From a virus (Duplodnaviria; Heunggongvirae; Uroviricota; Caudoviricetes), in the IMG/VR virus record IMGVR_UViG_2671180674_000013: DNA of 13,397 nucleotides; one strand, given 5' to 3'. Position numbers and translations under genes: made by a program. Below the pieces are notes generated by a model that had not been told where the DNA came from, made no database searches, and worked only from the letters and a program-made list of their open reading frames with translations. The number at the start of each line of letters is the position of its first letter. Positions within the stretch are counted from its first letter, which is position 1. This document shows, piece by piece, positions 1 to 13,397 of the stretch.

Positions 1-378
1 ATGCAGATGAACCCCCAGAATACTCAACCGCAAATAATGAACTATGACCCGAATCTGACGTCGTGCGGACGCATGGCAAAACAAACCGTTCGATTAACTT
101 TCGGACTATGGGAATACCGCGAAACATTCGAAGTTACTGTCGGCGGCAATCTGACCGGACTGGATGTTATCAGTTGCGCTATTGAAAGCCTGTACGCAAC
201 GCTACCTTATGAAGAAGTCAGGGATAAGCGTACTGGGGAAACGGATATCATGGCCACCATTAATATTGGCGAACTGATATGCCAGGATGAAGACCTGTCC
301 GGAGAGCTCTGGCTTGCCGGGATGCTTGTCTCAGCAGAAATTATCAGTATTGAACCCGCTACAAACATACGACTCTGA
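1..378 (+). CDS. hypothetical protein (prophage accessory gene upstream of xis-int module)
   Basis: Open 125-codon frame from ATG at base 1 to TAA at 376-378. No family recognised by eye. The true start could lie upstream of the window. Confidence 0.4.
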   Translation: MQMNPQNTQPQIMNYDPNLTSCGRMAKQTVRLTFGLWEYRETFEVTVGGNLTGLDVISCAIESLYATLPYEEVRDKRTGETDIMATINIGELICQDEDLSGELWLAGMLVSAEIISIEPATNIRL

Positions 379-409
379 AGTTCTCACTATTCAGAGAGCA
401 GGAGAAAAA

Positions 410-652
410 ATGTTCGCTCTGATTAATCAAGGACAACTGTATACCGACAGTGCCGGTTACCCGGTAAAAATTGTTCGCTGCATAAACAACACCGTGTTGT
501 ACAGAAGAATGGACGGGCAAACACAATCGGTAAAAATGAACGATTTTAATGAATCGTTTGAACGGATCGATCACCAGGAATACCGACAAATTCTGGCAGA
601 AACAGAACAGGAAGCTCATCTGAAAAAATTACGTGCCATGAAAAGGAAGTAA
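410..652 (+). CDS. hypothetical small protein (80 aa)
   Basis: AGGAG at 400-404, 5-nt spacer, ATG at 410, stop TAA 650-652. The longer 287-start version in the ORF track overlaps the previous ORF and has no RBS. Confidence 0.4.
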   Translation: MFALINQGQLYTDSAGYPVKIVRCINNTVLYRRMDGQTQSVKMNDFNESFERIDHQEYRQILAETEQEAHLKKLRAMKRK

Positions 653-655
653 AGA

Positions 656-802
656 ATGAATAAAGCGTTTGAGCTATGGGTACGCCAGCGTTACGGCAAT
701 CGCTATGACCTGACGCGAGATGTTGACGGTTTCTACTGTCGCGAAATTGTGAGACGAATGTTTGAAGTGTGGTGCCACTGCCGTGGGCTGAATGTTGTGT
801 GA
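656..802 (+). CDS. hypothetical small Cys/His-containing protein (48 aa)
   Basis: AGGAAG at 644-649, 6-nt spacer, ATG 656, TGA 800-802. Below the ORF-track length cutoff, found by reading. It sits 4 nt after the previous stop, suggesting an operon. Contains C-x-x-x... and C-H-C residues. Confidence 0.3.
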   Translation: MNKAFELWVRQRYGNRYDLTRDVDGFYCREIVRRMFEVWCHCRGLNVV

Positions 803-810
803 GGTGATGT

Positions 811-1020
811 ATGGGACTGGATTGCGTGCCTATATCAACCTACTGCCGCGACGCGGGAGAAACGGTTGATGCCGTTAACAAACGGATACAAAGAGGAATC
901 TGGAAAGAAGGGATTCATGTATTAAAAGTCGACGGAGTTAAAGAACGTTGGGTCGACTTAATGGAGATTTCAAAATGGGCAAGAAAGAACAAGGATCATT
1001 ATCTCTCCCTAGAGGAGTAA
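811..1020 (+). CDS. excisionase-like small DNA-binding protein (Xis-like)
   Basis: 69-aa basic protein directly upstream of and overlapping the integrase start, the typical xis-int arrangement. GAGGTGA RBS lies 5 nt before ATG 811. Family assignment is by position and size, not by a recognised motif. Confidence 0.5.
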   Translation: MGLDCVPISTYCRDAGETVDAVNKRIQRGIWKEGIHVLKVDGVKERWVDLMEISKWARKNKDHYLSLEE

Positions 1021-2147
1021 CTATTCGCCAGCATAAAACTGGCAGCACCCTGGTTATCACTTTTACATATAAAGGGGTTCTGTGTCGGGAACCCCTCTCC
1101 AGAATGGAAGTAAATGCGCGCGGCGTGAAGTACGCCGAGCGTCTGCTGGGAGAAATAAAAAATCAGATTATCGATGGTACCTTCGAATATGCAAAATACT
1201 TCCCCAACTCCCAAAAGCTGGAGTTGTTCGGGGGAGTGAAAAAAAACAAAAATATAAAATCTTACCTGGATGAATACCTGATTATCTGCCAGAACCGTAA
1301 CCTGTCACCATCGACAATTAGAGGTTATGAAAAATGCCTGTCGGCGCTGTCAGCATTGCATAAATTTCATGTATCAGAACTGACACCTGCAGTACTAAAA
1401 AACTGGATCGCCAGCAGAAAAACAAAACTGAAAACTATCCGCAATAATCTTTCATTCCTGCGCAGCGCCATAGATGAAGCGGTGACCGATGGTTTGTTAA
1501 CAATAAATCCTGTCACGCTGGTCAGCGCCAGCCGGTATCACGTATTGGACAACACACCAGGCAGTGATGATTACGAGGTCGATCCTTTTACACCAGCGGA
1601 GACGGCAGCAATCTATGACGCCTGTCATTACCCGGAATGGCGAAATCTGTTTCGCTTTGCCTTTAATACCGGACTGCGCAGCTCAGAATTGTGCGCGTTG
1701 CGCTGGACAGATATAGACTTCATCGGCAACACTGCACATGTCCAGACTGCAAGCGTAGTCGGGGTAATCAAAAGCACCAAAACAAAAGCCGGCACTCGCA
1801 AAGTACAACTGAACAACGAAGCACTGGCAGCTCTTCAGGCACAAAAGCCCTACACGGCGCTAAAAAGCGACTTCATATTCAGCGATCCGAAAACTCGCGC
1901 TCCTTGGGCAAACGCAGATGCGATCCGCAAAAAAGCCTGGGTACCGACCCTTAAAAAGGCTGGAGTACGCTATCGCAATCCGTACCAGACACGCCACACG
2001 TTCGCCACTCGGCACATTAGCCAGGGTGTTAACCTGTTCTGGCTTGCTGGTCAGATGGGGCATAAAGGACCGGAAATGCTGTTCAGACATTACGGCTCTT
2101 ACCTTGCAGAATACGATGGAAAAACGGCGATTTCTGCAACCCCGTAA
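975..2147 (+). CDS. int: tyrosine recombinase / phage integrase (lambda-type, N-terminal arm-binding domain)
   Basis: N-terminus LSLPRGVTIRQHKTGSTLVITFTYKGVLCRE resembles the arm-binding domain of enterobacterial prophage integrases. C-terminus carries R...HTFATRH...LAGQMGH...RHYGSY, matching the tyrosine-recombinase R-H-R-Y box. Start placed at ATG 975 (GGAG at 963-966); the ORF track starts earlier at a TTG (948). Confidence 0.88.
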   Translation: MGKKEQGSLSLPRGVTIRQHKTGSTLVITFTYKGVLCREPLSRMEVNARGVKYAERLLGEIKNQIIDGTFEYAKYFPNSQKLELFGGVKKNKNIKSYLDEYLIICQNRNLSPSTIRGYEKCLSALSALHKFHVSELTPAVLKNWIASRKTKLKTIRNNLSFLRSAIDEAVTDGLLTINPVTLVSASRYHVLDNTPGSDDYEVDPFTPAETAAIYDACHYPEWRNLFRFAFNTGLRSSELCALRWTDIDFIGNTAHVQTASVVGVIKSTKTKAGTRKVQLNNEALAALQAQKPYTALKSDFIFSDPKTRAPWANADAIRKKAWVPTLKKAGVRYRNPYQTRHTFATRHISQGVNLFWLAGQMGHKGPEMLFRHYGSYLAEYDGKTAISATP

Positions 2148-2279
2148 CGGCAAAATTTTTCAAAATGTTGTACAGAATCAGGACGTTACCGGGACAACAA
2201 TATGTACGTAAAATGCACATAATGCCTTGCGTGAAAAAATAAATCGTTCGTATTCAATAAACTATGTGAATCCCGATCA

Positions 2280-2306
2280 CGGGTTCAACTCCCGCCAGCT
2301 CCACCA
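2280..2306 (+). other. attachment-site core: 27-nt copy of the 3' end of tmRNA gene ssrA (ends ...GCCAGCTCCACCA)
   Basis: CGGGTTCAACTCCCGCCAGCTCCACCA is identical to the 3' terminus of enterobacterial ssrA as I recall it. Sequence upstream of 2280 does not continue the ssrA match, so this is a displaced or partial 3' segment, not a full gene. Confidence 0.75.
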
Positions 2307-2489: not shown

Positions 2490-3680
2490 ATGGCGCGTAT
2501 CACACGCCCCCTCACTAACAATGAAATCCTTAAAGCCAAACCCCGTGAAAAAGACTTCACCCTTCATGATGGTGATGGCTTGTTCTTGCTCGTCAAAACC
2601 ACTGGTAAAAAACTCTGGCGCTTCCGTTATCAACGACCGGGAAGCAGCAGCCGCACAAATTTGAGTCTCGGCTCATATCCTGCCCTTACACTCGCAGCAG
2701 CTCGTCAGATACGCGACCAGCACTTAACCACGCTTGCGCAAGGTATGGATCCGCAGCAGCAACAAGAGCAGGCATCAGAACAACGTCAGATTGAGTTGGA
2801 TAGTATTTTCTCAACTGTGGCCGCCAACTGGTTCAAAATGAAGAGCAAAAGTGTCACTGAAGACTACGCTAAAGATATTTGGCGCTCTTTGGATAAGGAT
2901 GTGTTCCCTGCAATAGGCGCGATTCCTGTTCAGGAGATTAAGGCCAGAACGATAGTTGAAGCGTTGGAACCAATCAAAGCACGAGGTGCATTAGAAACTG
3001 TTCGTCGCTTGGTCCAGCGCATTAACGAAATAATGATTTACGCAGTTAACACAGGCCTGATTGATGCTAATCCGGCATCGGGTGTCGGAATGGCATTTGA
3101 GAAACCGAAAAAGCAAAACATGCCGACACTTCGACCAGAAGAATTGCCAAAGCTCATGCGCTCTTTGGTGATGTCGAATCTCTCAGTTTCGACCCGCTGT
3201 CTAATTGAATGGCAACTCCTGACGCTCGTGCGTCCATCTGAGGCTTCTGGCGCTCGGTGGGTAGAGATCGATCTTGATGCCAGGCTCTGGACAATTCCAG
3301 CAGAGCGGATGAAAGCAAATCGAGAGCATATCGTTCCTTTATCAACCCAGGCGTTAGAAATTTTGGAAGTAATGAAGCCTATTAGTGCTCATCGTGAACA
3401 TGTCTTCCCCAGTAGAAATGATCCCAAACAGCCAATGAATAGCCAGACGGCGAACGCTGCCTTAAAGCGGATTGGTTATGGTGGAAAGTTGGTTGCACAT
3501 GGTTTACGTTCAATTGCGAGTACAGCTATGAACGAGGCGGGATTCAATGCTGACGTCATTGAGTCTGCTCTAGCACACTCTGATAGAAATGAAGTTAGAA
3601 GAGCTTATAATCGTTCTACATATCTAGATAAAAAAATAATACTATTTAACTGGTGGGGTGCACAGGTCTATAAGAAGTAA
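2490..3680 (+). CDS. int: P4-family tyrosine integrase (CP4-57 IntA-like)
   Basis: 396 aa. N-terminal MARITRPLTNNEILKAKP...DGDGLFLLV...KLWRFRY and C-terminal HGLRSIASTAMNEAGF...ALAHSDRNEVRRAYNRSTYL match the conserved blocks of P4/CP4-57-type integrases as I remember them. It sits about 180 bp downstream of the ssrA 3' core, as intA does relative to ssrA in E. coli K-12. Confidence 0.9.
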   Translation: MARITRPLTNNEILKAKPREKDFTLHDGDGLFLLVKTTGKKLWRFRYQRPGSSSRTNLSLGSYPALTLAAARQIRDQHLTTLAQGMDPQQQQEQASEQRQIELDSIFSTVAANWFKMKSKSVTEDYAKDIWRSLDKDVFPAIGAIPVQEIKARTIVEALEPIKARGALETVRRLVQRINEIMIYAVNTGLIDANPASGVGMAFEKPKKQNMPTLRPEELPKLMRSLVMSNLSVSTRCLIEWQLLTLVRPSEASGARWVEIDLDARLWTIPAERMKANREHIVPLSTQALEILEVMKPISAHREHVFPSRNDPKQPMNSQTANAALKRIGYGGKLVAHGLRSIASTAMNEAGFNADVIESALAHSDRNEVRRAYNRSTYLDKKIILFNWWGAQVYKK

Positions 3681-3712: not shown

Positions 3713-6349
3713 TTATTCAGTAAATATTACATCATCAATATTAAAAGACACTTTAAAATTAGGGTAGAGTTTCAATATTACCTTTTCGAAAATCTCATCA
3801 TCATCATTTAAATTTCTTGCTCTTGAATAAAGACGGTAATTATCTTTTGTTATTTGTTTAATTTCGATATGACAAGCATCATTACTATCAAAGCCTCTAA
3901 AGAAGGTAAAACTATCCAAACTTACAGCATAAATATTATTCAAGGCATTTTCGTCCTCAAAGAAGTAAGTTAACTTATAATCCTTATAAACTTCATAATT
4001 ATAGTTCTTAACTGAATTTTTATTCACAAATAATATATAATTACTCTTCTCTATATCAGCATCATTAAATTTTAAAAAACGCCCTCCTGCTTTGACACAA
4101 TTGAATAATTGCTGCTTATATATAGATATGATTCCATCTCCATATAGCCCAGCACTTGATAAATATGAAACATCATCAACCACGCCTAAAAACTCACGTT
4201 TTGATGGATAAAAAATTAGTTCACTTGTTTTATGGCATATAGGAAGCTTGGATAAATCAACATTTAATGTACTAACAAGCCATTTATTTAAATGTAAATT
4301 CACATCTATTTTAAAGCGTAATACAATGTTCTTATCCATTGTCGATTTTATAACTTTTCTCGTAACTTCTTTGCTCTTATACTCCAACATCATATCAAAT
4401 TTATCTTTAATTAAATCCACTTCCCTTTTCACTTCATTATTATCATACCCCATAGATGTTACCATTATATCTAATTCAGGAGACTCACACGCTTTAATTA
4501 GCAGGTGATAGTCGTTAGAACTAAATCCCACCACATCGACTAATTTACGCCAGTCGTACAAGTATCTCAGGTTAAACCCTCTACGTTTTACAGCCAAAAC
4601 CAATAATATAAAGACTAATGCTCTTATTGCATAGTGATATTCTGTAACAGTATAGGCCTCACCTTCCGGGAGATTTCTAATTCGTTGTTCATCTATACTT
4701 GCACGAATTCTTTCTTCATAAGAACCAAATAACATTCCATATAACTCAACTTCATCTGTATAATTAGAAAAGATAGCAAGATCGCTCCACAATTTGCTAG
4801 CATTAATTATCGCATCGATCTCCACGTCACTTTTATTGTCAGTTTGAATTGCGCTCCAACGCATCTGAAGAACAGTTAAAACAAACCGCTGAATTTTAAA
4901 TATAACAGAAATAATTTCGCTAGCATTTCTTTTTTCTAAATTCAAATACTTGACACTAAGATGCTTAGTTCCTGCATTAAAGTACTCCCCCCAAAACATT
5001 ATCGCACTGTAATCTAACTCATTGCATGCAGATTCAATCAACCCTTTAATGACTTCATAATAGTCTGCGTTATCATCGTGATAACTCAAATAACTATTCA
5101 AGGTATCTTCATGATTTTTGATAAAAGCATTAAAGTCATCTCTATTTAAAGAGAGTTTTGCTATCTGTATTATAAATTCTAACGCGGCAGTTTTCTTTCT
5201 AAGATTAACATTCAACTCAGAAAAATTATTCATTAACTCATCAATAGAATTTTTTTTCACATCCGAATTATTTAAATATTGATATGACAGTCCAAAAGCT
5301 ATATCAAAAGGATATGCTGAAACATCCCCATTAACTAAGCATGAAAAAACATTAATAGCATTTCTTATTGACTCTCTGTTATTTTCCAAAAGAGCACTAT
5401 ACAGATAGATGACAACCCCATTAATTAATTCATCATAATGATTAATCACTTTAAATTCATTATCTGTTATTAACACACCAACAATCAAAGAAGAAACTTT
5501 CTTTGATGATTTTTTATCCAAAATTTTTTTAGCCGTATAATTAACTTCTATAGTTTTGCTTCCACTACTATGCAGGTTAATATTTGGCACAATAATTTCA
5601 TATTCATCCAATAAACCTTTTATCTTCATTCCATTTAAAAAATTGTTTAGTTTATGGAATTTCTCTAAATCTATGTCAACAGTCAAAACATTATCACCCC
5701 CATATATCCCTATGCTATATGGTTGTTGCTTTTGCATTTTCATTTTGCCATAAGAATAATATCCATTTGGTAAATCTCTAACTAGATTTAAAATCTTATC
5801 ATGTAATTCAGAGTTAGCATCCTCTAACAAGGTATAACCCTTGACAAGACTTGAGCAGTGAGATTGTAAATACTCAACAGCGAAGTTCTTATTACGTGAC
5901 ATGTTAAATAATTTCAAGTATGTTTTAAAATACTTCAAAAGAAAATACATTGATAGTAATTGTGACACCACATACTGAGCAATACCACCACCAAAAACAA
6001 AAAAGAAGAATGAAATTATCAAGGTTGATATTGCATCAATACCAAACTGCACAAGGTTGATTTCATCCAGTATCTTTTTCCTAATATAACTTTCCAACGC
6101 ACGAGGTGAGGATTTATTAACAGCATCAACAGTCACACTCATAAAAGTTAATGACAACGCACTGATTGTACCGTGTATACCTAAGGAGACCCCCCAAGCA
6201 CTAAATATCCAATCAAACCCCAATTTTTTTAAATCACTAGAATTAGAAAACAACCACCACCACTCATTTTTACAAAAAAAAACAAGAATACATAAAGTAA
6301 AAAAAATAAAAAAACCAGAGATATAACAAAACAATCTTTTACCCATCAT
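3713..6349 (-). CDS. large membrane-anchored protein of unknown function; candidate anti-phage defence / abortive-infection effector
   Basis: 878-codon uninterrupted frame. Strongly AT-rich: a few sampled lines give roughly 20-32% G+C, against visibly GC-rich neighbours. The first ~145 residues contain 3-4 hydrophobic helices (LFCYISGFFIFFTLCILVFFC, FDWIFSAWGVSLGIHGTISALSLTFMSV, FGIDAISTLIISFFFFVFGGGIAQYVV). The remaining ~730 residues are hydrophilic and Asn/Lys/Tyr-rich with no canonical Walker A, HNH or PD-(D/E)xK motif seen by eye. AAGGA lies just upstream of the ATG. Confidence 0.8.
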   Translation of the reverse strand: MMGKRLFCYISGFFIFFTLCILVFFCKNEWWWLFSNSSDLKKLGFDWIFSAWGVSLGIHGTISALSLTFMSVTVDAVNKSSPRALESYIRKKILDEINLVQFGIDAISTLIISFFFFVFGGGIAQYVVSQLLSMYFLLKYFKTYLKLFNMSRNKNFAVEYLQSHCSSLVKGYTLLEDANSELHDKILNLVRDLPNGYYSYGKMKMQKQQPYSIGIYGGDNVLTVDIDLEKFHKLNNFLNGMKIKGLLDEYEIIVPNINLHSSGSKTIEVNYTAKKILDKKSSKKVSSLIVGVLITDNEFKVINHYDELINGVVIYLYSALLENNRESIRNAINVFSCLVNGDVSAYPFDIAFGLSYQYLNNSDVKKNSIDELMNNFSELNVNLRKKTAALEFIIQIAKLSLNRDDFNAFIKNHEDTLNSYLSYHDDNADYYEVIKGLIESACNELDYSAIMFWGEYFNAGTKHLSVKYLNLEKRNASEIISVIFKIQRFVLTVLQMRWSAIQTDNKSDVEIDAIINASKLWSDLAIFSNYTDEVELYGMLFGSYEERIRASIDEQRIRNLPEGEAYTVTEYHYAIRALVFILLVLAVKRRGFNLRYLYDWRKLVDVVGFSSNDYHLLIKACESPELDIMVTSMGYDNNEVKREVDLIKDKFDMMLEYKSKEVTRKVIKSTMDKNIVLRFKIDVNLHLNKWLVSTLNVDLSKLPICHKTSELIFYPSKREFLGVVDDVSYLSSAGLYGDGIISIYKQQLFNCVKAGGRFLKFNDADIEKSNYILFVNKNSVKNYNYEVYKDYKLTYFFEDENALNNIYAVSLDSFTFFRGFDSNDACHIEIKQITKDNYRLYSRARNLNDDDEIFEKVILKLYPNFKVSFNIDDVIFTE

Positions 6350-6648: not shown

Positions 6649-7215
6649 CTACCGTGCGGCCAGTTCTGCACGTCGGCGGGTGTAAATCAGGTTCTGTGCC
6701 GGGGTGAATTTCTGGCGATTATCATCCCGCGAAGCCGCATCAGGCCTGAATCCGATAGCCGTTAAAATATCGCTGTCCTGCACGGAATAATTAATTTTTT
6801 CACCTGCGGCCAGCCACACCGACAGGGCTTCACGCAGATAATCAACCGAGTGCTGCATGGCGCTCTGTTTTACTGCGGGAAGCTGTTCGTGATATCCCAT
6901 CAGCTCAGGTGCCAGCGTGGCGGCCAGCTCCGCGCCGTGCTGCTGCATAAAGTCATGGAGCCGGTTGCGGATACTGATGTGCTGCACCTCCTCATGTGAG
7001 CGGATATAGCGACCGGCGGCCTGATTAATTTCCCACTTTTTCACGTCGATATTGTCGCGCAAATCCTGCATTCTGAGCGGGATTTGTTCGTCACCGGCAA
7101 GGAGCTGTTCACGGTATTCCCGTTCAAGGTCTGCCAGTTCGGCTTTACGTTTCAGCCAGGTGTTTTTGTTCGTCTGACAGGCCTCAAAGGCCTGCTGTAT
7201 GGTCACAGTGGTCAC
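6649..7215 (-). CDS. psu: Psu-like protein (polarity suppression / capsid decoration), by position and size
   Basis: 188 aa, last gene of the minus-strand late operon, immediately before the cos-like site. P4 Psu is about 190 aa and occupies the same position (sid-delta-psu-cos). This is not a verified sequence match. Confidence 0.5.
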   Translation of the reverse strand: MTTVTIQQAFEACQTNKNTWLKRKAELADLEREYREQLLAGDEQIPLRMQDLRDNIDVKKWEINQAAGRYIRSHEEVQHISIRNRLHDFMQQHGAELAATLAPELMGYHEQLPAVKQSAMQHSVDYLREALSVWLAAGEKINYSVQDSDILTAIGFRPDAASRDDNRQKFTPAQNLIYTRRRAELAAR

Positions 7216-7230: not shown

Positions 7231-7470
7231 TTAATGCCGGAACGGCGAGCTGTAGCAGCCCTGTACTTTACGCGGCGGCGGTGGCGTCACCGGGGCGGGG
7301 TCGGGTTTCTCCGGTGCGGCACGTATCACACCGTCAACCGACTCGATGGTGCGGAAAGTGGCCGAGCATTCGATATTGGTACACTGGTGATAACGCTGTT
7401 TGACGTTTTCCGACAGATAACGGCTGGTACGGACGTGCGCGGTATTTTTGCAGAACGGGCAGTGAAACAT
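7231..7470 (-). CDS. ogr: Ogr/Delta-family zinc-finger late transcriptional activator
   Basis: MFHCPFCKNTAHVRTSRYLSENVKQRYHQCTNIECSATFRTIESV carries the C-x2-C...C-x4-C spacing and the conserved RTSRY, RYHQC and CSATF blocks of P2 Ogr as I recall them. Single-domain, 79 aa. Confidence 0.85.
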   Translation of the reverse strand: MFHCPFCKNTAHVRTSRYLSENVKQRYHQCTNIECSATFRTIESVDGVIRAAPEKPDPAPVTPPPPRKVQGCYSSPFRH

Positions 7471-7473
7471 GAT

Positions 7474-8217
7474 TCAGCCCTCTGCCTGTTCGTGGGATTT
7501 TTCTGCCAGTTCAGCGGCAAGTTTCATCCGTCTGGCCGGGCTTCTTAACAGCGCCATATCAACCCCGGTTATGACCGGGCGATTCATGCCCGTTACGGAC
7601 AGGACCGGCTCCTGCTCCATATCAAAATGATACAGGGCTGACTGCATATTCAGGGCATCACCCAGCTCGCGGGTCACGGTCGCACGCGGCGAGGTATCTC
7701 CACTCATTTCCAGCGACCGTATACGCAACAGAAAGGCACGTAACAGTGCAGGATTGATACCGGTCAGCGCCTTCTTCCACTCGCTGTTGGCGTAGGTAGT
7801 GAACGCTTTTTCATGGGCGCTGATATAAGCCGTACCGGAGGAGCATGCGCCAAGCATGGCGTGGCTTTTGTCTTTCTCCAGCTCGGTAATCAGACCGGTG
7901 AACTCATCAGCCAGTTCGCGGCTGGCGATACGTTTGCTGTGTTCAGCTTTCAGTTCAGGAGTGAGGTTGCCGCGCAGAGTTCGAAAGCGGCTGCGCCAGT
8001 CCTGTTCGGCCTGTGCGCTTTCACTGAGGGCGGTCTGTCGTTCCTGCTCACAACGCTGAATGGAAGCCTCAATGTCGCTGAGTTTACCCATGCAGGCCGA
8101 GTGTGCGTCTTTTGCTTCGTTAAGTGCGGCCAGCGCACCGGCAATACGTTGTTCCGCGCCTTCATCCTGTTTACTGATAACGGTCTGCATGGCTTTGATA
8201 ATGAGTTCGGGTTTCAT
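7474..8217 (-). CDS. Sid-like protein (capsid size determination scaffold), by position
   Basis: First gene of the late operon, just upstream of the ogr/delta-like gene. Start placed at the ATG complementary to 8215-8217, which has GGAG 9 nt upstream and gives 247 aa (P4 Sid is about 244 aa). The ORF track extends it to 8283 without an RBS and into the putative promoter. Confidence 0.45.
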   Translation of the reverse strand: MKPELIIKAMQTVISKQDEGAEQRIAGALAALNEAKDAHSACMGKLSDIEASIQRCEQERQTALSESAQAEQDWRSRFRTLRGNLTPELKAEHSKRIASRELADEFTGLITELEKDKSHAMLGACSSGTAYISAHEKAFTTYANSEWKKALTGINPALLRAFLLRIRSLEMSGDTSPRATVTRELGDALNMQSALYHFDMEQEPVLSVTGMNRPVITGVDMALLRSPARRMKLAAELAEKSHEQAEG

Positions 8218-8289
8218 GTTCAGGTTCTCCGTATGTTCAACCTGAAATGATTCTGACGCCTCCTGCACAACAACACGATTCATTGCCGT

Positions 8290-8307
8290 TGTCAGAGTGC
8301 TGGCACA
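8290..8307. promoter_or_regulatory. TGT-N12-ACA dyad: candidate Ogr/Delta binding site of the late (Psid-like) promoter
   Basis: TGTCAGAGTGCTGGCACA at 8290-8307. The dyad centre is about 80 nt upstream of the proposed sid-like start, which would place it near -55 relative to a plausible transcription start, as in P2/P4 late promoters. Confidence 0.45.
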
Positions 8308-8385
8308 AACAGACCTTAAAATCAGGCTGGCCAGAGAAAGGTCGCAGGAAAACCTTACTCACCGTTTGTTTTTTTACTTATAACT

Positions 8386-8488
8386 ATTCACCACTGTTCA
8401 CCTTAAATAAAAAGATAAGTAATACAGTAAGTTAAATGGTGAACAGTTGAAGGTCTGACTGTTCACCGTCTGTTCACCACTGTTCACC
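8386..8488. repeat. iteron cluster of TGTTCACC octamers (P4 crr-like alpha-binding region)
   Basis: Perfect TGTTCACC at 8395-8402, 8460-8467, 8471-8478 and 8481-8488. Inverted copy GGTGAACA at 8438-8445. Degenerate ATTCACC at 8386-8392. Confidence 0.7.
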
Positions 8489-8570
8489 CTTCAGTTTTGC
8501 TCTGGCTATATCATTTAGACTTTATTACGATTGAAAACGAAGAATATATAACTAAAAGAGATATTAATTG

Positions 8571-8627
8571 CTGCATTGTAATGCAGTGATTTGCATATGT
8601 TTGCCAGCGTTTGCCTTTGTTTGCCAG
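8571..8627. promoter_or_regulatory. palindrome plus helically phased GTTTGCC repeats in the promoter region of the alpA-like operon
   Basis: Perfect 16-nt palindrome CTGCATTGTAATGCAG at 8571-8586. GTTTGCC at 8599, 8609 and 8619 (10-bp phasing), with TGTTTGCCAG repeated at 8598-8607 and 8618-8627. Confidence 0.4.
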
Positions 8628-8754
8628 AGCGAAAAGTCAATGTTTGTTTCCCCGAAAATCTCACATGACCTGAGGGAAAATATAAACATAATAAGGAGCT
8701 ACCCGAAGCCGGACGGACACGACCGGCACTGTATGGACTTTGTGAGGTAGCCCG

Positions 8755-9021
8755 ATGCACACCGCTTTTTCTTCCCCGTCTTCTGCCCCTGCCGCGCCGC
8801 TGATGCCGGTTTCTGATACCGTTCACGAGCGCTTTATCCGTCTGCCCGAAGTGATGCATCTGTGCGGCCTGTCCCGCTCGACCATTTACGACCTCATCAG
8901 CCGGGAAGCCTTCCCGAAACAAATCTCCCTCGGCGGAAAAAACGTGGCGTGGGCGCAGTCTGAAATCACTGCATGGATGGCGGATCGCATTGCCGAACGT
9001 AACCGGGGCTATGACGCATGA
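8755..9021 (+). CDS. alpA: AlpA-family phage transcriptional regulator (MerR-like HTH)
   Basis: The segment [47 protein letters not shown] matches the AlpA helix-turn-helix pattern (RLP.V....G.SR.TIY......FP.....G...V.W...EI..W). GAGG lies 8 nt before ATG 8755. Confidence 0.7.
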
Positions 9022-9148
9022 TGATGGCCGCTCAGCAAAAAGCCCCTTTTTCTGGCTTGCTTCTTTTCGCCGTTTCCAGGTATAGTTTTCCCGCTGTCGC
9101 AAAATCGGCAGCCGGGATTGGCGTCCCGTTTACAACATTGGCGACACC

Positions 9149-9171
9149 GGACGCGCCTTGCGTCTTTTTTT
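9149..9171 (+). terminator. short-stem intrinsic terminator in the leader downstream of the alpA-like gene
   Basis: GACGC (9150-9154) pairs with GCGTC (9160-9164) around a 5-nt loop, followed by seven T (9165-9171). The stem is only 5 bp, so it is weak or conditional. Confidence 0.35.
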
Positions 9172-9374
9172 GTGTCTATGCCTCAGCGCATCCATTTTTG
9201 ATCCAGAGATTTATCTGTCTATGGATCCTTCGTGTAATGGTGGCTCAGGCGGGGGCTTCTCACGAAGCGCCGGTTTCCAATGTTGCCGGTTACGCCAACC
9301 CCGTCTGGGCTACCACCAGTGAAATTGGCGTTTCCAGTGGTAGCAGTCACATGCAAACATTGGAGGTTGCCACT

Positions 9375-9569
9375 ATGGCTACGACCCTCACCCCGTCACA
9401 CCCGCAGTTTGTCTTTGTGTTTGCCGCCGTTCGTCGCGCAGACCGTAAACCCCGTATTTGCATGCTGCGCACCGTTGCCGGTGACGAGCACGCCGCACGC
9501 CTTTCCCTCGTTCGCGATTACATCCTCTCGTTCGCTGGCCGTCTGCCGGTTGCGGAGGTGCGCGCATGA
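9375..9569 (+). CDS. hypothetical small protein (64 aa)
   Basis: Strong GGAGG at 9362-9366, 8-nt spacer, ATG 9375. The longer 9018-start form in the ORF track has non-protein-like composition upstream of this ATG. Confidence 0.5.
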
Positions 9570-9793
9570 GACACACCACCATTACTGCCCGTGACCTCGA
9601 ATGTCTGGAGCATATGCGCAATGTCGGCCAGCTCGTCAGCGACCTGATGCAGGTGCAGGACTGCGCCACCGTTCGTCGTGACCCTGCGCAGCAGTTACAG
9701 CTCACCTCCGTGATTTACCTCATGACCGCCCAGCTCGACGGCGTGGTCGAACGCTGCAATCAGCAGTGGCTGACCGGGGAGGGTAACGTATGA
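9566..9793 (+). CDS. hypothetical protein (75 aa), translationally coupled
   Basis: ATGA start/stop overlap with the preceding ORF at 9566-9569; acidic, helical-looking sequence. Confidence 0.5.
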
Positions 9794-10110
9794 AAAAGCC
9801 ATTACCACCCGTATTACGCGCCGCGCTGTATCGTCGCGCCGTGGCCTGTGCATGGCTGACCCTGTGCGAACGCCAGCACCGCTACCCGCACCTCACCCTC
9901 GACGCGCTGGAAAGCGCCATTGCCGCCGAGCTGGAGGGCTTCTACCTGCGCCAGCACGGCGAGGAAAAAGGCCGTCAGATTGCCTGTGCCCTGCTCGAAG
10001 ATTTAATGGAAGCCGGACCACTGAAAGCCGCCCCGTCGCTGTCCTTTCTCGGGCTGGCCGTGATGGATGAACTCTGCGCCCGTCATATCACCGCACCGGC
10101 ACTGCACTGA
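9790..10110 (+). CDS. hypothetical protein (106 aa), translationally coupled
   Basis: ATGA overlap at 9790-9793. Directly precedes the primase gene, in the position of the P4 epsilon/accessory genes. Confidence 0.5.
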
Positions 10111-10121
10111 GGGAAAACACC

Positions 10122-12455
10122 ATGAAAATGAACGTAACGGACACCGTAAAACAGGCGTGCGGCCACTGGCCGCGCATTCTCCCTGCGCTGGGTGTGAAGG
10201 TGATTAAAAACCGCCATCAGTCCTGCCCGGTGTGCGGCGGCTCCGACCGCTTTCGCTTTGACGATAAAGAGGGGCGCGGGACGTGGTTCTGTAACCAGTG
10301 CGGCGCGGGAGACGGCCTGAAACTGGTAGAGAAAGTGTTCGGCATGACCCCGTCAGAGGCGGCCGGGAAGGTGAACGCCGTGACCGGCAACCTGCCGCCG
10401 GTTTCCCCGGAAGTGACTGCGGCCGCAGAGGCCGAAACTGTGGCCGACCGCAAAGCGGCGGCCGCGCTGGCCGTCAGGATCATGGAGAAAACCCGACCGG
10501 CCACCGGCAATGCCTACCTCACCCGCAAGGGTTTCCCCGACCGGGAATGTCTGACGCTCACCGTCATGCATAAAACCGGCGGCGTGACGTTCCGCGCCGG
10601 TGATGTGGTTGTCCCGCTGTATGAGGATACCGGCACACTGGTTAACCTTCAGCTTATCAATGCTGACGGTCTCAAGCGCACCCTGAAAGGCGGTCAGGTC
10701 AAAGGTGCATGCCATACCATTGAAGGGCAAAAACAGGCGGGAAAACGCCTGTGGATTGCGGAGGGTTATGCGACCGCGCTCACCGTGCATCACCTGACCG
10801 GGGAAACCGTCATGGTGGCGCTGTCCTCCGTGAACCTCCTTTCTCTGGCGAGCCTTACCCGTCAGAAGTCCCCGGCCTGTCAGATTGTGCTGGCCGCTGA
10901 CCGTGACCTGAACGGCGACGGCCAGAGCAAAGCCGCTGCGGCCGCAGATGCCTGTGAGGGCATTGTTGCCCTGCCGCCGGTGTTCGGTGACTGGAATGAT
11001 GCGTTTATGCAGAAAGGTGAAGAGGCCACGCGGAAAGCCATTTATGACGCCATCCGGCCACCGGCGCAAAGTCCGTTTGATACCATGAGCGAAGCGGAAT
11101 TTACCGCCATGAGCGCCAGCGACAAGGCCTTGCGGGTGCATGAGCATTACGGCGAAGCGCTGGCGGTGGATGCGAACGGCCAGCTCCTGTCCCGCTATGA
11201 AAACGGCATCTGGAAAAATATCCCTGCCGCCACTTTCTCACGGAATGTGGCTGACTTATTCCAGCGTCTGCGCGCCCCGTTCTCGTCCGGGAAAATTGCC
11301 TCGGTAGTGGAGACCCTGAAACTGATTATTCCGCAGCAGGATACACCGGCACGTCGTCTGATTGGCTTTCGCAACGGGGTACTCGATACCCAAAGCGGCG
11401 TATTCAGCCCGCACCATAAATCGCACTGGCTGCGCACGCTGTGCGACGTGGATTTTACCCCGCCGGTGGACGGGGAAACGCTGGAGACTCACGCGCCAAA
11501 CTTCTGGCGCTGGCTCGACCGTGCAGCCGGTAAAAACCCACAAAAACGCGACGTGATTCTGGCCGCGCTTTTTATGGTGCTGGCGAACCGTTACGACTGG
11601 CAGCTCTTTCTCGAAGTGACCGGTCCCGGCGGGAGTGGCAAAAGTATTCTGGCCGAAATCGCGACCCTGCTCGCCGGAGAGGATAACGCCACGTCGGCCG
11701 ACATCGACACGCTGGAAGACCCGCGCAAGCGAGCATCCCTGATTGGCTTCTCGCTAATCCGTCTGCCTGACCAGGAAAAATGGAGCGGTGACGGCGCAGG
11801 ACTCAAGGCAATCACCGGCGGCGATGCGGTCTCGGTTGACCCGAAATACCAGAACCCCTATTCCACGCATATTCCGGCTGTAATTCTGGCCGTGAACAAC
11901 AACCCGATGCGCTTCACCGACCGCAGCGGCGGCGTGTCGCGTCGCCGGGTGATTATTCACTTCCCGGAGCAGATTGCCCCGGAGGAACGCGACCCGCAGC
12001 TCAGGGATAAAATTGCGCGCGAGCTGGCCGTCATTGTGCGCCAGCTTATGCAGAAATTCAGCGACCCGATGACCGCGCGCACACTGCTCCAGTCGCAGCA
12101 GAACTCCGACGAGGCACTCAGCATCAAGCGCGATGCTGACCCGACGTTTGATTTTTGCGGCTATCTGGAAATGCTGCCGCAGACCAACGGGATGTTTATG
12201 GGGAATGCCAGCATCATCCCGCGTAATTATCGTAAATATCTCTATCACGCGTATCTGGCCTATATGGAGGCTAACGGCTACAGGAACGTGCTCAGCCTGA
12301 AAATGTTCGGGCTGGGGCTGCCCATGATGCTGAAAGAGTACGGCCTGAATTATGAGAAGCGGCACACCAAGCAGGGGATACAAACCAATCTGTCGCTGAA
12401 AGAGGAAAGCTACGGAGACTGGTTGCCGAAGTGCGATGACCCCACAGCAACATAA
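10122..12455 (+). CDS. P4 alpha-type bifunctional primase/helicase
   Basis: 777 aa, the same length as P4 alpha. N-terminal zinc-ribbon C-P-V-C-G-G...C-N-Q-C-G, a Toprim-like LWIAEGYATALTVH...AADRD segment, and a Walker A GPGGSGKS (from VTGPGGSGKSIL) in the C-terminal helicase half. GC-rich, with iterons following. Confidence 0.9.
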   Translation: MKMNVTDTVKQACGHWPRILPALGVKVIKNRHQSCPVCGGSDRFRFDDKEGRGTWFCNQCGAGDGLKLVEKVFGMTPSEAAGKVNAVTGNLPPVSPEVTAAAEAETVADRKAAAALAVRIMEKTRPATGNAYLTRKGFPDRECLTLTVMHKTGGVTFRAGDVVVPLYEDTGTLVNLQLINADGLKRTLKGGQVKGACHTIEGQKQAGKRLWIAEGYATALTVHHLTGETVMVALSSVNLLSLASLTRQKSPACQIVLAADRDLNGDGQSKAAAAADACEGIVALPPVFGDWNDAFMQKGEEATRKAIYDAIRPPAQSPFDTMSEAEFTAMSASDKALRVHEHYGEALAVDANGQLLSRYENGIWKNIPAATFSRNVADLFQRLRAPFSSGKIASVVETLKLIIPQQDTPARRLIGFRNGVLDTQSGVFSPHHKSHWLRTLCDVDFTPPVDGETLETHAPNFWRWLDRAAGKNPQKRDVILAALFMVLANRYDWQLFLEVTGPGGSGKSILAEIATLLAGEDNATSADIDTLEDPRKRASLIGFSLIRLPDQEKWSGDGAGLKAITGGDAVSVDPKYQNPYSTHIPAVILAVNNNPMRFTDRSGGVSRRRVIIHFPEQIAPEERDPQLRDKIARELAVIVRQLMQKFSDPMTARTLLQSQQNSDEALSIKRDADPTFDFCGYLEMLPQTNGMFMGNASIIPRNYRKYLYHAYLAYMEANGYRNVLSLKMFGLGLPMMLKEYGLNYEKRHTKQGIQTNLSLKEESYGDWLPKCDDPTAT

Positions 12456-12463
12456 CCTCACTC

Positions 12464-12490
12464 AGACCGGCATCAGCCGGTCTTTTCCTT
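12464..12490 (+). terminator. rho-independent terminator after the primase gene
   Basis: AGACCGG (12464-12470) pairs with CCGGTCT (12477-12483) around a 6-nt loop, followed by TTTTCCTTTC. Confidence 0.6.
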
Positions 12491-12507
12491 TCTGACCATT
12501 GCCACAG

Positions 12508-12792
12508 GGTGAACAATCCACTGTTCACCCTTCACCGTATATTCACCCTGTATCACCATGAAATTATTGATAAAAAACCAGAGGTGAACAGTGTGAATAG
12601 TAAAACCTGAAAAAACTTTTTATCCCTCCACCACATCGCCTGACCGGGCGCATCCAGAGCGAGAAAAAAACACAAAGGTGAAGAGTCGACTGTTCACTCT
12701 TCACCAACTCATCACCATTTATCTTTATGATTTAAAATAGAAAATAAGCATGGTGAACAGTGTGAACAGTTAAATGCAAAAAAACTTTTTTT
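12508..12792. repeat. iteron cluster of TGTTCACC/GGTGAACA octamers with A/T-tract elements (P4 ori-like)
   Basis: GGTGAACA at 12508-12515, 12583-12590 and 12752-12759. TGTTCACC at 12522-12529. Near-copies at 12531-12537, 12541-12548, 12677-12684, 12691-12698, 12700-12705 and 12761-12769. Inverted repeat GGTGAAGAGT (12677-12686) / ACTCTTCACC (12696-12705). A5-6CT5-7 tracts at 12609-12623 and 12776-12792. Confidence 0.7.
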
Positions 12793-12858
12793 GAGTATGA
12801 TGTAGCTCTCCATACTTTATGGAAAGATCCAAGTTAGCTGAAAGCCTCACCAAGACAG

Positions 12859-12877
12859 CACGTTAATTCGTAACGTG
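12859..12877. promoter_or_regulatory. inverted repeat (operator-like) just upstream of the terminal AT-rich ORF
   Basis: CACGTTA (12859-12865) and TAACGTG (12871-12877) flank a 5-nt spacer, about 20 nt before ATG 12897. Confidence 0.3.
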
Positions 12878-12896
12878 TTAAGCAAAAGGGAATTTT

Positions 12897-13397
12897 ATGG
12901 GGACTACTTTGCTTCAAGAAAACCATGAAAAAATTTTAAACATACTAAATGAAGCTAAAGATGTGGCGCTAAGGTATTACAAATTAACCAATAAGCCTCT
13001 CGGAATCACTGGAGAAATAGCTGAACATGAAGCTGCAACTCTTCTCGGGTTGTCACTATGTTCAGCACGTCAGTCCGGATACGATGCGACTGAGATTTTG
13101 GACGGGAAAGAATATAGAGTTCAAATCAAAGGTCGATATATGCCTGATCCTAAAAAAGTCTCTGCGAGAATTGGTGCTATTGATATATCTAAGCCATTTG
13201 ATTCTGTTCTTTTAGTTTTGCTTGATGAAAATTATGATGCTTTTGCCATGTATGAAGCATCACGAGATGTAGTAGTCGCAGCTCTTCAAGCTCCGGGGTC
13301 AAAGTCTAGAAATGAGCGAAATCAACTAGGCATAGCAAAATTCAAGTCCATTAGCCGTCTCCGCTGGAGCAAGGTTGCTGAACCTGAGATCCTTTAA
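12897..13397 (+). CDS. hypothetical protein (166 aa), AT-rich accessory gene at the alpha-proximal end of the element
   Basis: Complete frame from ATG 12897 to TAA 13395-13397, with an AGGGA-type RBS upstream. Composition is markedly more AT-rich than the adjacent primase gene. No family recognised. The spaced acidic/basic residues (GEIAEHE...GYDATE...RVQIKGR) are weakly reminiscent of a PD-(D/E)xK-like core, which is speculative. Confidence 0.6.
   Translation: MGTTLLQENHEKILNILNEAKDVALRYYKLTNKPLGITGEIAEHEAATLLGLSLCSARQSGYDATEILDGKEYRVQIKGRYMPDPKKVSARIGAIDISKPFDSVLLVLLDENYDAFAMYEASRDVVVAALQAPGSKSRNERNQLGIAKFKSISRLRWSKVAEPEIL

Follow-up and report, generated by a model that had tools for sequence, protein, structure and literature searches.

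Replication of the satellite phage P4 is independent of the host proteins DnaA, DnaB and DnaG, and its mechanism is said to have been worked out in studies that appeared between 1987 and 1999. The minimal P4 origin, ori1 (also called ori), comprises 123 bp, and the type 2 repeats of the region lie outside it. The ori iterons occupy positions 9310-9413 of the P4 sequence X51522, inside a rep_origin feature of 9086-9809 between sid and vis/ORF88. The partner site crr (X51522 4291-4590) is located immediately 3' of the alpha gene and consists of two 120-bp direct repeats, each of which harbors iterons in the order - + + - -. Iteron origins of plasmids and of Gram-negative PICI satellites follow a shared logic, in which initiator iterons flank an AT-rich melting region; this layout of iterons and AT-rich region has been described for E. 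coli PICI origins (PMC6092414). P4 differs from these systems in its initiator alpha, which is a fusion of primase, SF3 helicase and winged helix, and in the distant second iteron site (crr) that is needed in cis. A protein-based survey of P4-like satellites leaves the cis-acting replication sites untreated (PMC8628076).

The window analyzed here is a stretch of 13,397 nucleotides of viral DNA (IMG/VR record IMGVR_UViG_2671180674_000013), in which a cluster of octamers is positioned between the divergent genes sid and alpA. Based on its homology, this cluster (8385-8488) is very probably the replication origin of a P4-like satellite prophage, equivalent to P4 ori. A blastn search with 8200-8760 against 50,697 phage records returned a match to P4 only (X51522 9026-9533), with 80.1% identity across two aligned pieces. 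The matched region lies beside ORF88 and is annotated as 'origin of DNA replication', with six features named 'ori type 1 repeat' and three named 'ori type 2 repeat'. Near identity with P4 extends from about 8335 to 8491 in a pairwise alignment, and the core is 85.6% identical to P4 ori over 160 bp. A single offset brings all six iteron slots of the window into register with the six ori iterons annotated in P4 (Table 1). Their spacing and orientation are identical to those of P4 (two direct copies, one inverted copy and three direct copies, + + / - / + + +), and five of the six are identical in sequence, the exception being slot 1 of the window with TATTCACC. The P4 spacer between the second and third iterons is likewise 35 bp long, has an AT content of 82.9% and shows almost the same sequence as the window's 8403-8437. 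With respect to duplex stability, only three non-overlapping 35-mers of the window are less stable than 8403-8437 (z = 2.4), and all three belong to the AT-rich cargo. Slot 3 makes perfect 10-nt inverted repeats with slots 2, 4 and 5; beyond the hairpins implied by these inverted iterons, the origin strand folds no better than expected (z = -2.1). No direct repeats of about 120 bp or other long direct repeats were found within 8250-8760. An open reading frame on the + strand (8247-8435) that overlaps the iterons has no family match and was taken as spurious. Origin function and binding of alpha at 8385-8488 are predicted by analogy with P4. The ori of a P4-like satellite is an ordinary and well-understood feature, which holds no surprise for the specialist.

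Table 1. Coordinates of the features in the window (positions from the first nucleotide of the window; P4 positions refer to X51522).
Feature	Position	Strand	Description
Integrase	2490-3680	+	
Cargo ORF	3713-6349	-	878 aa; AT-rich; without Pfam family; int-psu hotspot
psu	6649-7215	-	
delta	7231-7470	-	Single domain, 79 aa
sid	7474-8217	-	
sid-alpA intergenic gap	8218-8754		537 bp between divergent genes; same arrangement in P4
TGT-N12-ACA dyad, sid side	8290-8307		Aligns with P4 TGTGCCAGCCCTGACACA
Conserved ori core	8330-8493		Megablast-detectable in most E. coli P4-like elements; deeper core 8372-8489
Iteron slot 1	8385-8392	+	TATTCACC, one mismatch to TGTTCACC; aligns with P4 type 1 repeat 9406-9413
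Iteron slot 2	8395-8402	+	TGTTCACC; aligns with P4 9396-9403
AT-rich spacer	8403-8437		35 bp, 85.7% AT; presumed DNA unwinding element
Iteron slot 3	8438-8445	-	Inverted TGTTCACC; aligns with P4 9353-9360
Iteron slots 4, 5 and 6	8460-8488	+	TGTTCACC at 8460-8467, 8471-8478 and 8481-8488 (spacings 11 and 10 bp); align with P4 9331-9338, 9320-9327 and 9310-9317
Four TTTGC(C/A) units	8591-8630	+	10-bp spacing; slot of the three 'ori type 2 repeats' of P4
Putative sigma-70-like promoter upstream of alpA (PLL-like)	8665-8692	+	ATGACC-16-CATAAT; consensus match only
alpA/vis homologue	8755-9021	+	88 aa; first gene of the operon ending with alpha; Pfam Phage_AlpA, 3e-20
Ash/Icd-like ORF	9018-9569	+	
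ORF	9566-9793	+	75 aa
Homologue of P4 ORF106	9790-10110	+	106 aa; Pfam DUF5375, 3.4e-65; 91.5% identical to P4 ORF106
alpha	10122-12455	+	Primase-helicase-origin-binding initiator, 777 aa; Pfam Zn_Ribbon_Prim, Toprim_3, D5_N, DUF5906, Pox_D5
Hairpin and T-run after alpha	12465-12492	+	GACCGGC-ATCA-GCCGGTC-TTTTCCTTTC; P4 't-alpha' annotated at the aligned position
crr homologue	12508-12790		Two 114-nt direct repeats, each with five iteron slots (- + + - -)

The original prediction described four perfect direct octamers and one inverted copy within about 100 bp of the sid-alpA divergent region. An exact search located precisely these five copies of TGTTCACC (slots 2 to 6) within 94 bp, between the flanking genes named. 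A search allowing one mismatch added a sixth copy, slot 1, located 10 bp before the first perfect one; the start of the cluster, formerly placed at 8386, falls inside this copy. In the whole window nine perfect copies of TGTTCACC occur, compared with 0.28 expected from shuffled sequence (sd 0.50, maximum of two in 200 shuffles), so that the enrichment test proposed with the prediction came out positive. All nine fall into two clusters, 8395-8488 and 12508-12759, the latter with copies at 12508 (-), 12522 (+), 12583 (-) and 12752 (-). The distance between the clusters was given as about 4.1 kb and amounts to 4.02 kb from edge to edge and 4.2 kb from centre to centre. Inside the 8395-8488 cluster the density of copies is about 48 per kb, whereas isolated copies occur at 0.098 per kb in 998 kb of related loci and their flanks. 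An equal frequency of the octamer elsewhere, which had been named as an argument against the prediction, is not observed. The chromosomal flanks in two E. coli genomes contain no copy in 9.9 kb and three copies in 19.0 kb, respectively. A chance origin of the cluster was rejected on the basis of the shuffle counts and of the low density in related loci and flanks.

Judged from its genes, the window contains a satellite prophage of the P4 type, which resides in an E. coli-type genome. The core genes int, psu, delta, sid, alpA and alpha are present in P4 order, in agreement with the criteria used for such satellites (PMC8628076). The genes alpha, cnr, alpA, sid, delta, psu and int are all intact, and epsilon was not identified in the window's element. 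Compared with P4, the element integrates at ssrA, encodes a single-domain Delta of 79 amino acids and possesses a Sid protein that is just 29% identical to that of P4. Near-identical or close relatives adjoin ssrA in the E. coli strains E2 and KMi029. The E2 element (L003, NZ_CP195953) is 99.7% identical to the window over 7400-9100; in this locus, at 11223-13328, the alpha gene is truncated by an IS3-family insertion, its ori iterons are intact, and no crr iterons were found in it. The left 2.3 kb of the window (1-2306) represent the integrase end of another prophage, with DUF4222, DUF5406 and a tyrosine recombinase (948-2147), followed by the last 27 nt of ssrA (2280-2306); no tRNA or tmRNA gene was found at this end, and the window contains no complete tmRNA gene. 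This arrangement suggests that two elements are inserted in tandem at ssrA. With k = 12, no direct repeat (att) was found that links the left junction to the right end of the window; on the right, the element probably extends past the window.

Several accessory features of the element were also recorded. The int-psu hotspot is where P4-like satellites carry defence systems, and the ORF of the window at this site (3713-6349) gives only a marginal PADLOC hit to AbiEi (1e-3) and also matches a PHROG without assigned function; it is a candidate for an uncharacterised defence gene. Another ORF (12897-13397, +) begins just past crr and reaches the last base of the window. Its whole length matches the PADLOC model 'Type II methyl-directed restriction enzyme' (1e-100), and the annotation of E. 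coli KMi029 lists it as DUF6998. Thus the element carries cargo beyond crr, where P4 has attP. Rfam models of the C4 antisense RNA (9233-9320), isrK (9093-9170) and the c4-a1b1 target (9080-9132, +) match inside the Ash/Icd-like ORF. The RNAs of 9080-9320 constitute an immunity system of the P4 CI-RNA type.

The replication proteins of the element are closely related to those of P4. The alpha protein is 85.2% identical to P4 alpha, and its winged-helix region (residues 671-770, nt 12132-12431) shares 94 of 100 residues with PDB 1KA8, the structure determined for the C-terminal domain of P4 alpha. The homologue of P4 ORF106 lies directly upstream of alpha and is presumably the copy-number regulator cnr, as we take ORF106 of P4 to be. 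The alpA/vis homologue shows 70.5% identity to P4 ORF88/Vis. As alpha, cnr, ori and crr were each found in the window, all four parts of the P4 oriI replicon are present and intact.

The origin was also compared among 80 loci with alpha relatives of 57-97% identity, with one genome per species. All loci with available flanks share one layout: a cluster spaced by 43, 22, 11 and 10 bp is located 1.64-2.58 kb upstream of alpha, and a downstream cluster is positioned 55-310 bp after the alpha stop. Homologues of the ori core were identified in 64 and homologues of crr in 65 of the 80 loci, and the 8372-8489 core was detected down to 57% alpha identity. This shows that Enterobacterales elements have maintained both the two-site layout (ori plus crr) and the precise arrangement of the iterons. 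When 59 distinct ori cores from this order were aligned, the iteron columns showed a conservation of 0.88-0.94 (0.90-0.94 for slots 4 to 6), compared with 0.50-0.67 in the flanks. The 35-bp spacer reaches a mean of 0.80 and the spacer between slots 3 and 4 a value of 0.68, and the alignment shows hardly any variation in length. The distance from the last iteron to the alpA start is 265-290 bp in nearly all loci. Among 5,426 complete E. coli genomes, 1,045 match 7400-9100 in a megablast search. Most of these matches cover only 8330-8493 at about 85% identity, and they are always chromosomal and always without annotation; this stretch is the sole part of the sid-alpA region that is still megablast-detectable in most E. 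coli P4-like elements. Few non-coding parts of P4-like satellites are as well conserved as the ori core. Within many diverged alpha genes (L036, L049-L057, L078, L081-L084), a single inverted TGTTCACC lies near nt 1766 of the coding region, a copy that is absent from the window and from P4.

A descendant of a P4-type origin could have become an inactive relic that no longer works in a cryptic, possibly domesticated prophage. The imperfect first iteron points in this direction, as do the alpha gene of the near-identical E2 element, which is cut by IS3, and the second crr repeat of the window, in which just one iteron is perfect. Deletion of any single iteron reportedly inactivates P4 oriI, and the weakened first iteron (TATTCACC) could therefore matter for origin activity. 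However, among 60 aligned origin sequences, counting those of the window and P4, 33 have TATTCACC or TATTCACT in slot 1, which is its commonest state; the imperfect slot 1 thus represents the usual condition among relatives and not decay. In the crr of P4 itself, TATTCACC is listed among the annotated type 1 repeats, and the same degenerate slots occur in that site. The intact set of alpha, cnr, alpA, sid, delta, psu and int also disagrees with a relic, and the conservation of the iteron columns far above that of the flanks in the 59 cores argues for continuing selection. It is therefore quite unlikely that the site is a relic.

Further evidence for a functional link between alpha and the octamers was obtained from the C-terminal domain of alpha (residues 671-777, window 12132-12452), which is mosaic among the loci L005-L084. 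Domain classes were scored among alphas whose helicase part is 88-99% identical to that of the window. Class A domains, which include those of P4 and of the window, are at least 94% identical to the window's domain, whereas class B domains share only 70-79% and are set apart from class A by a constant set of about 17 substitutions. The iteron variant TGTTCACT, which ends in T, occupies 4 of 78 ori slots in class A and 56 of 96 in class B, and the crr iterons shift with the domain class as the ori iterons do; these counts are without correction for shared ancestry, and crr physically adjoins the DNA that encodes the domain. In Pantoea and Erwinia elements the iteron reads YCTTCACC. The covariation of iteron and domain class fits a domain that reads the octamers at both ori and crr and is supportive of this function. 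Several class B elements match one crr repeat unit only, with a single perfect iteron there.

The sid-alpA gap contains other sites besides the iterons. On the sid side, the dyad of 8290-8307 is presumably a putative Delta/Ogr-type activator site of a Psid-like late promoter, which we assume from the late promoters of P2 and P4. An imperfect dyad (TGT-N12-AAA, 8641-8658) precedes the promoter-like site of 8665-8692 and aligns with a TGT-N12-ACA of P4. The four TTTGC(C/A) units include GTTTGCC at 8599, 8609 and 8619. At the aligned position P4 harbors its type 2 repeats (three copies of CTTTAAGTGG), which are spaced equally but differ in sequence. In the same slot 15 related elements carry four to six TTGCCA, TGGCCA or TTACCA units that are spaced alike, which leaves P4 as the outlier. 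The repeats of 8591-8630 were considered as binding sites of AlpA/Vis, but the motif is absent near the att region of both the window and P4, and the repeats do not follow the allele of the AlpA helix-turn-helix; this assignment was rejected as unsupported. About 200 bp between the iterons of the window and the alpA leader cannot be aligned with P4. The leader itself (8697-8754, +), which comprises about 60 nt before alpA, is nearly invariant in 16 aligned elements including P4. Within it a stem (GCTACC...GGTAGC) is possible, in overlap with the ribosome-binding site; the folding energy of the leader is not unusual (z = -1.3), and its sequence varies too little for a covariation test.

The position of the iterons between a Psid-like and a PLL-like promoter raises the question whether they act mainly as a transcriptional operator, bound by alpha or another protein, with a role in replication that is secondary or lost. 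The cluster is located about 80 bp from the dyad of 8290-8307 and about 180 bp upstream of the promoter-like site of alpA, and its distance to alpA is strikingly constant across relatives. The identical iteron set at crr, however, has no promoter context, and an iteron origin is typically built in this way, with iterons on both sides of an AT-rich segment (here 35 bp). Moreover, the iteron variants track the allele of the DNA-binding domain of alpha and not AlpA. A mainly regulatory role is thus very unlikely, although a regulatory side effect of alpha binding could coexist with the origin function of 8385-8488.

The second octamer cluster of the window, 12508-12790, is by homology the crr equivalent and the partner site of ori. 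The region of 12400-12900 matches P4 crr, whereas 8200-8760 matches P4 ori only. The direct repeats of the site (12508-12621 and 12677-12790) have a period of 169 and are 71% identical, and its ten iteron slots coincide with the ten annotated crr iterons of P4. Even the degenerate slots of P4 crr are matched, with TATTCACC, TCTTCACC and TGTTCACA as slots 3, 6 and 10, respectively; repeat 2 of the window has only one perfect iteron. The site follows directly after the alpha terminator, whereas the 8385-8488 cluster precedes the alpha start by 1.6 kb. According to a 2026 preprint that deals with P4 engineering, crr borders the non-essential gop-int region, on the alpha-distal side.

The original prediction had recognized alpha-type iterons and a two-site layout of ori and crr correctly, but assigned the crr label to 8386-8488 and thereby reversed the two sites. 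The octamer is common to P4 crr and the ori of the window, and presumably the same protein is bound at both. P4 crr lies immediately 3' of alpha and contains 120-bp direct repeats with iterons in the order - + + - -; 8385-8488 possesses none of these properties. The cluster is ori-like, since its homology, its position, its iteron order and its lack of long repeats are all unlike crr. It is extremely improbable that 8385-8488 is nevertheless a crr-like auxiliary site and the cluster downstream of alpha the true origin: the shared octamer, by which both sites would bind alpha, and the real two-site layout with its spacing of about 4 kb agree with such an exchange, but the match of 8200-8760 to P4 ori and not crr, the ori iteron pattern between sid and alpA without repeats of about 120 bp, the full set of crr features at 12508-12790 (position after the terminator, two 114-nt repeats, ten collinear slots) and the location of crr beside the non-essential int region in the 2026 preprint all contradict it.

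With the sites assigned as ori at 8385-8488 and crr at 12508-12790, the window differs from P4 in its distances. The origin lies 1.64-1.73 kb upstream of alpha, compared with 2.35-2.44 kb in P4, and ori and crr are 4.2 kb apart from centre to centre, compared with 4.9 kb. Both distances are shorter because the intervening operon is shorter than that of P4.

By analogy with P4, the element's own alpha would bind the six type I iterons of ori, which are spaced about one helical turn apart as two direct copies, the AT-rich spacer, one inverted copy and three direct copies, via its C-terminal winged-helix domain. It would also bind the ten crr slots, which are 4 kb off and just after the alpha gene, and the two sites would act together in cis, probably through a DNA loop. 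Next, the AT-rich spacer that separates iterons 2 and 3 would melt, and the helicase and primase of alpha could start bidirectional replication of the theta type without host DnaA or DnaG, with Cnr restraining initiation. Binding, looping, melting of the spacer and firing of the origin are thus steps that we infer from P4; the sequence of the window itself shows that their structural prerequisites are present.

The corrected map, with the origin at 8385-8488 and crr at 12508-12790, is of practical importance, as an assay built on the earlier labels would swap the sites. Because the layout and geometry are kept and the core is well conserved, the ori core is usable as a marker for P4-like satellites and for predicting whether the alpha of one satellite acts on the origin of another. 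P4-like satellites may, as a tentative idea that is possible but not favored, form replication-specificity groups in which the winged-helix domain of alpha and the iterons of ori and crr have changed together. Three candidate groups appear: TGTTCACC with the P4-type domain, to which the window belongs, TGTTCACT with the second allele, and YCTTCACC in Pantoea and Erwinia. If such groups exist, co-resident satellites, of which up to four occur per E. coli genome, could replicate independently of each other or cross-activate, depending on their class.
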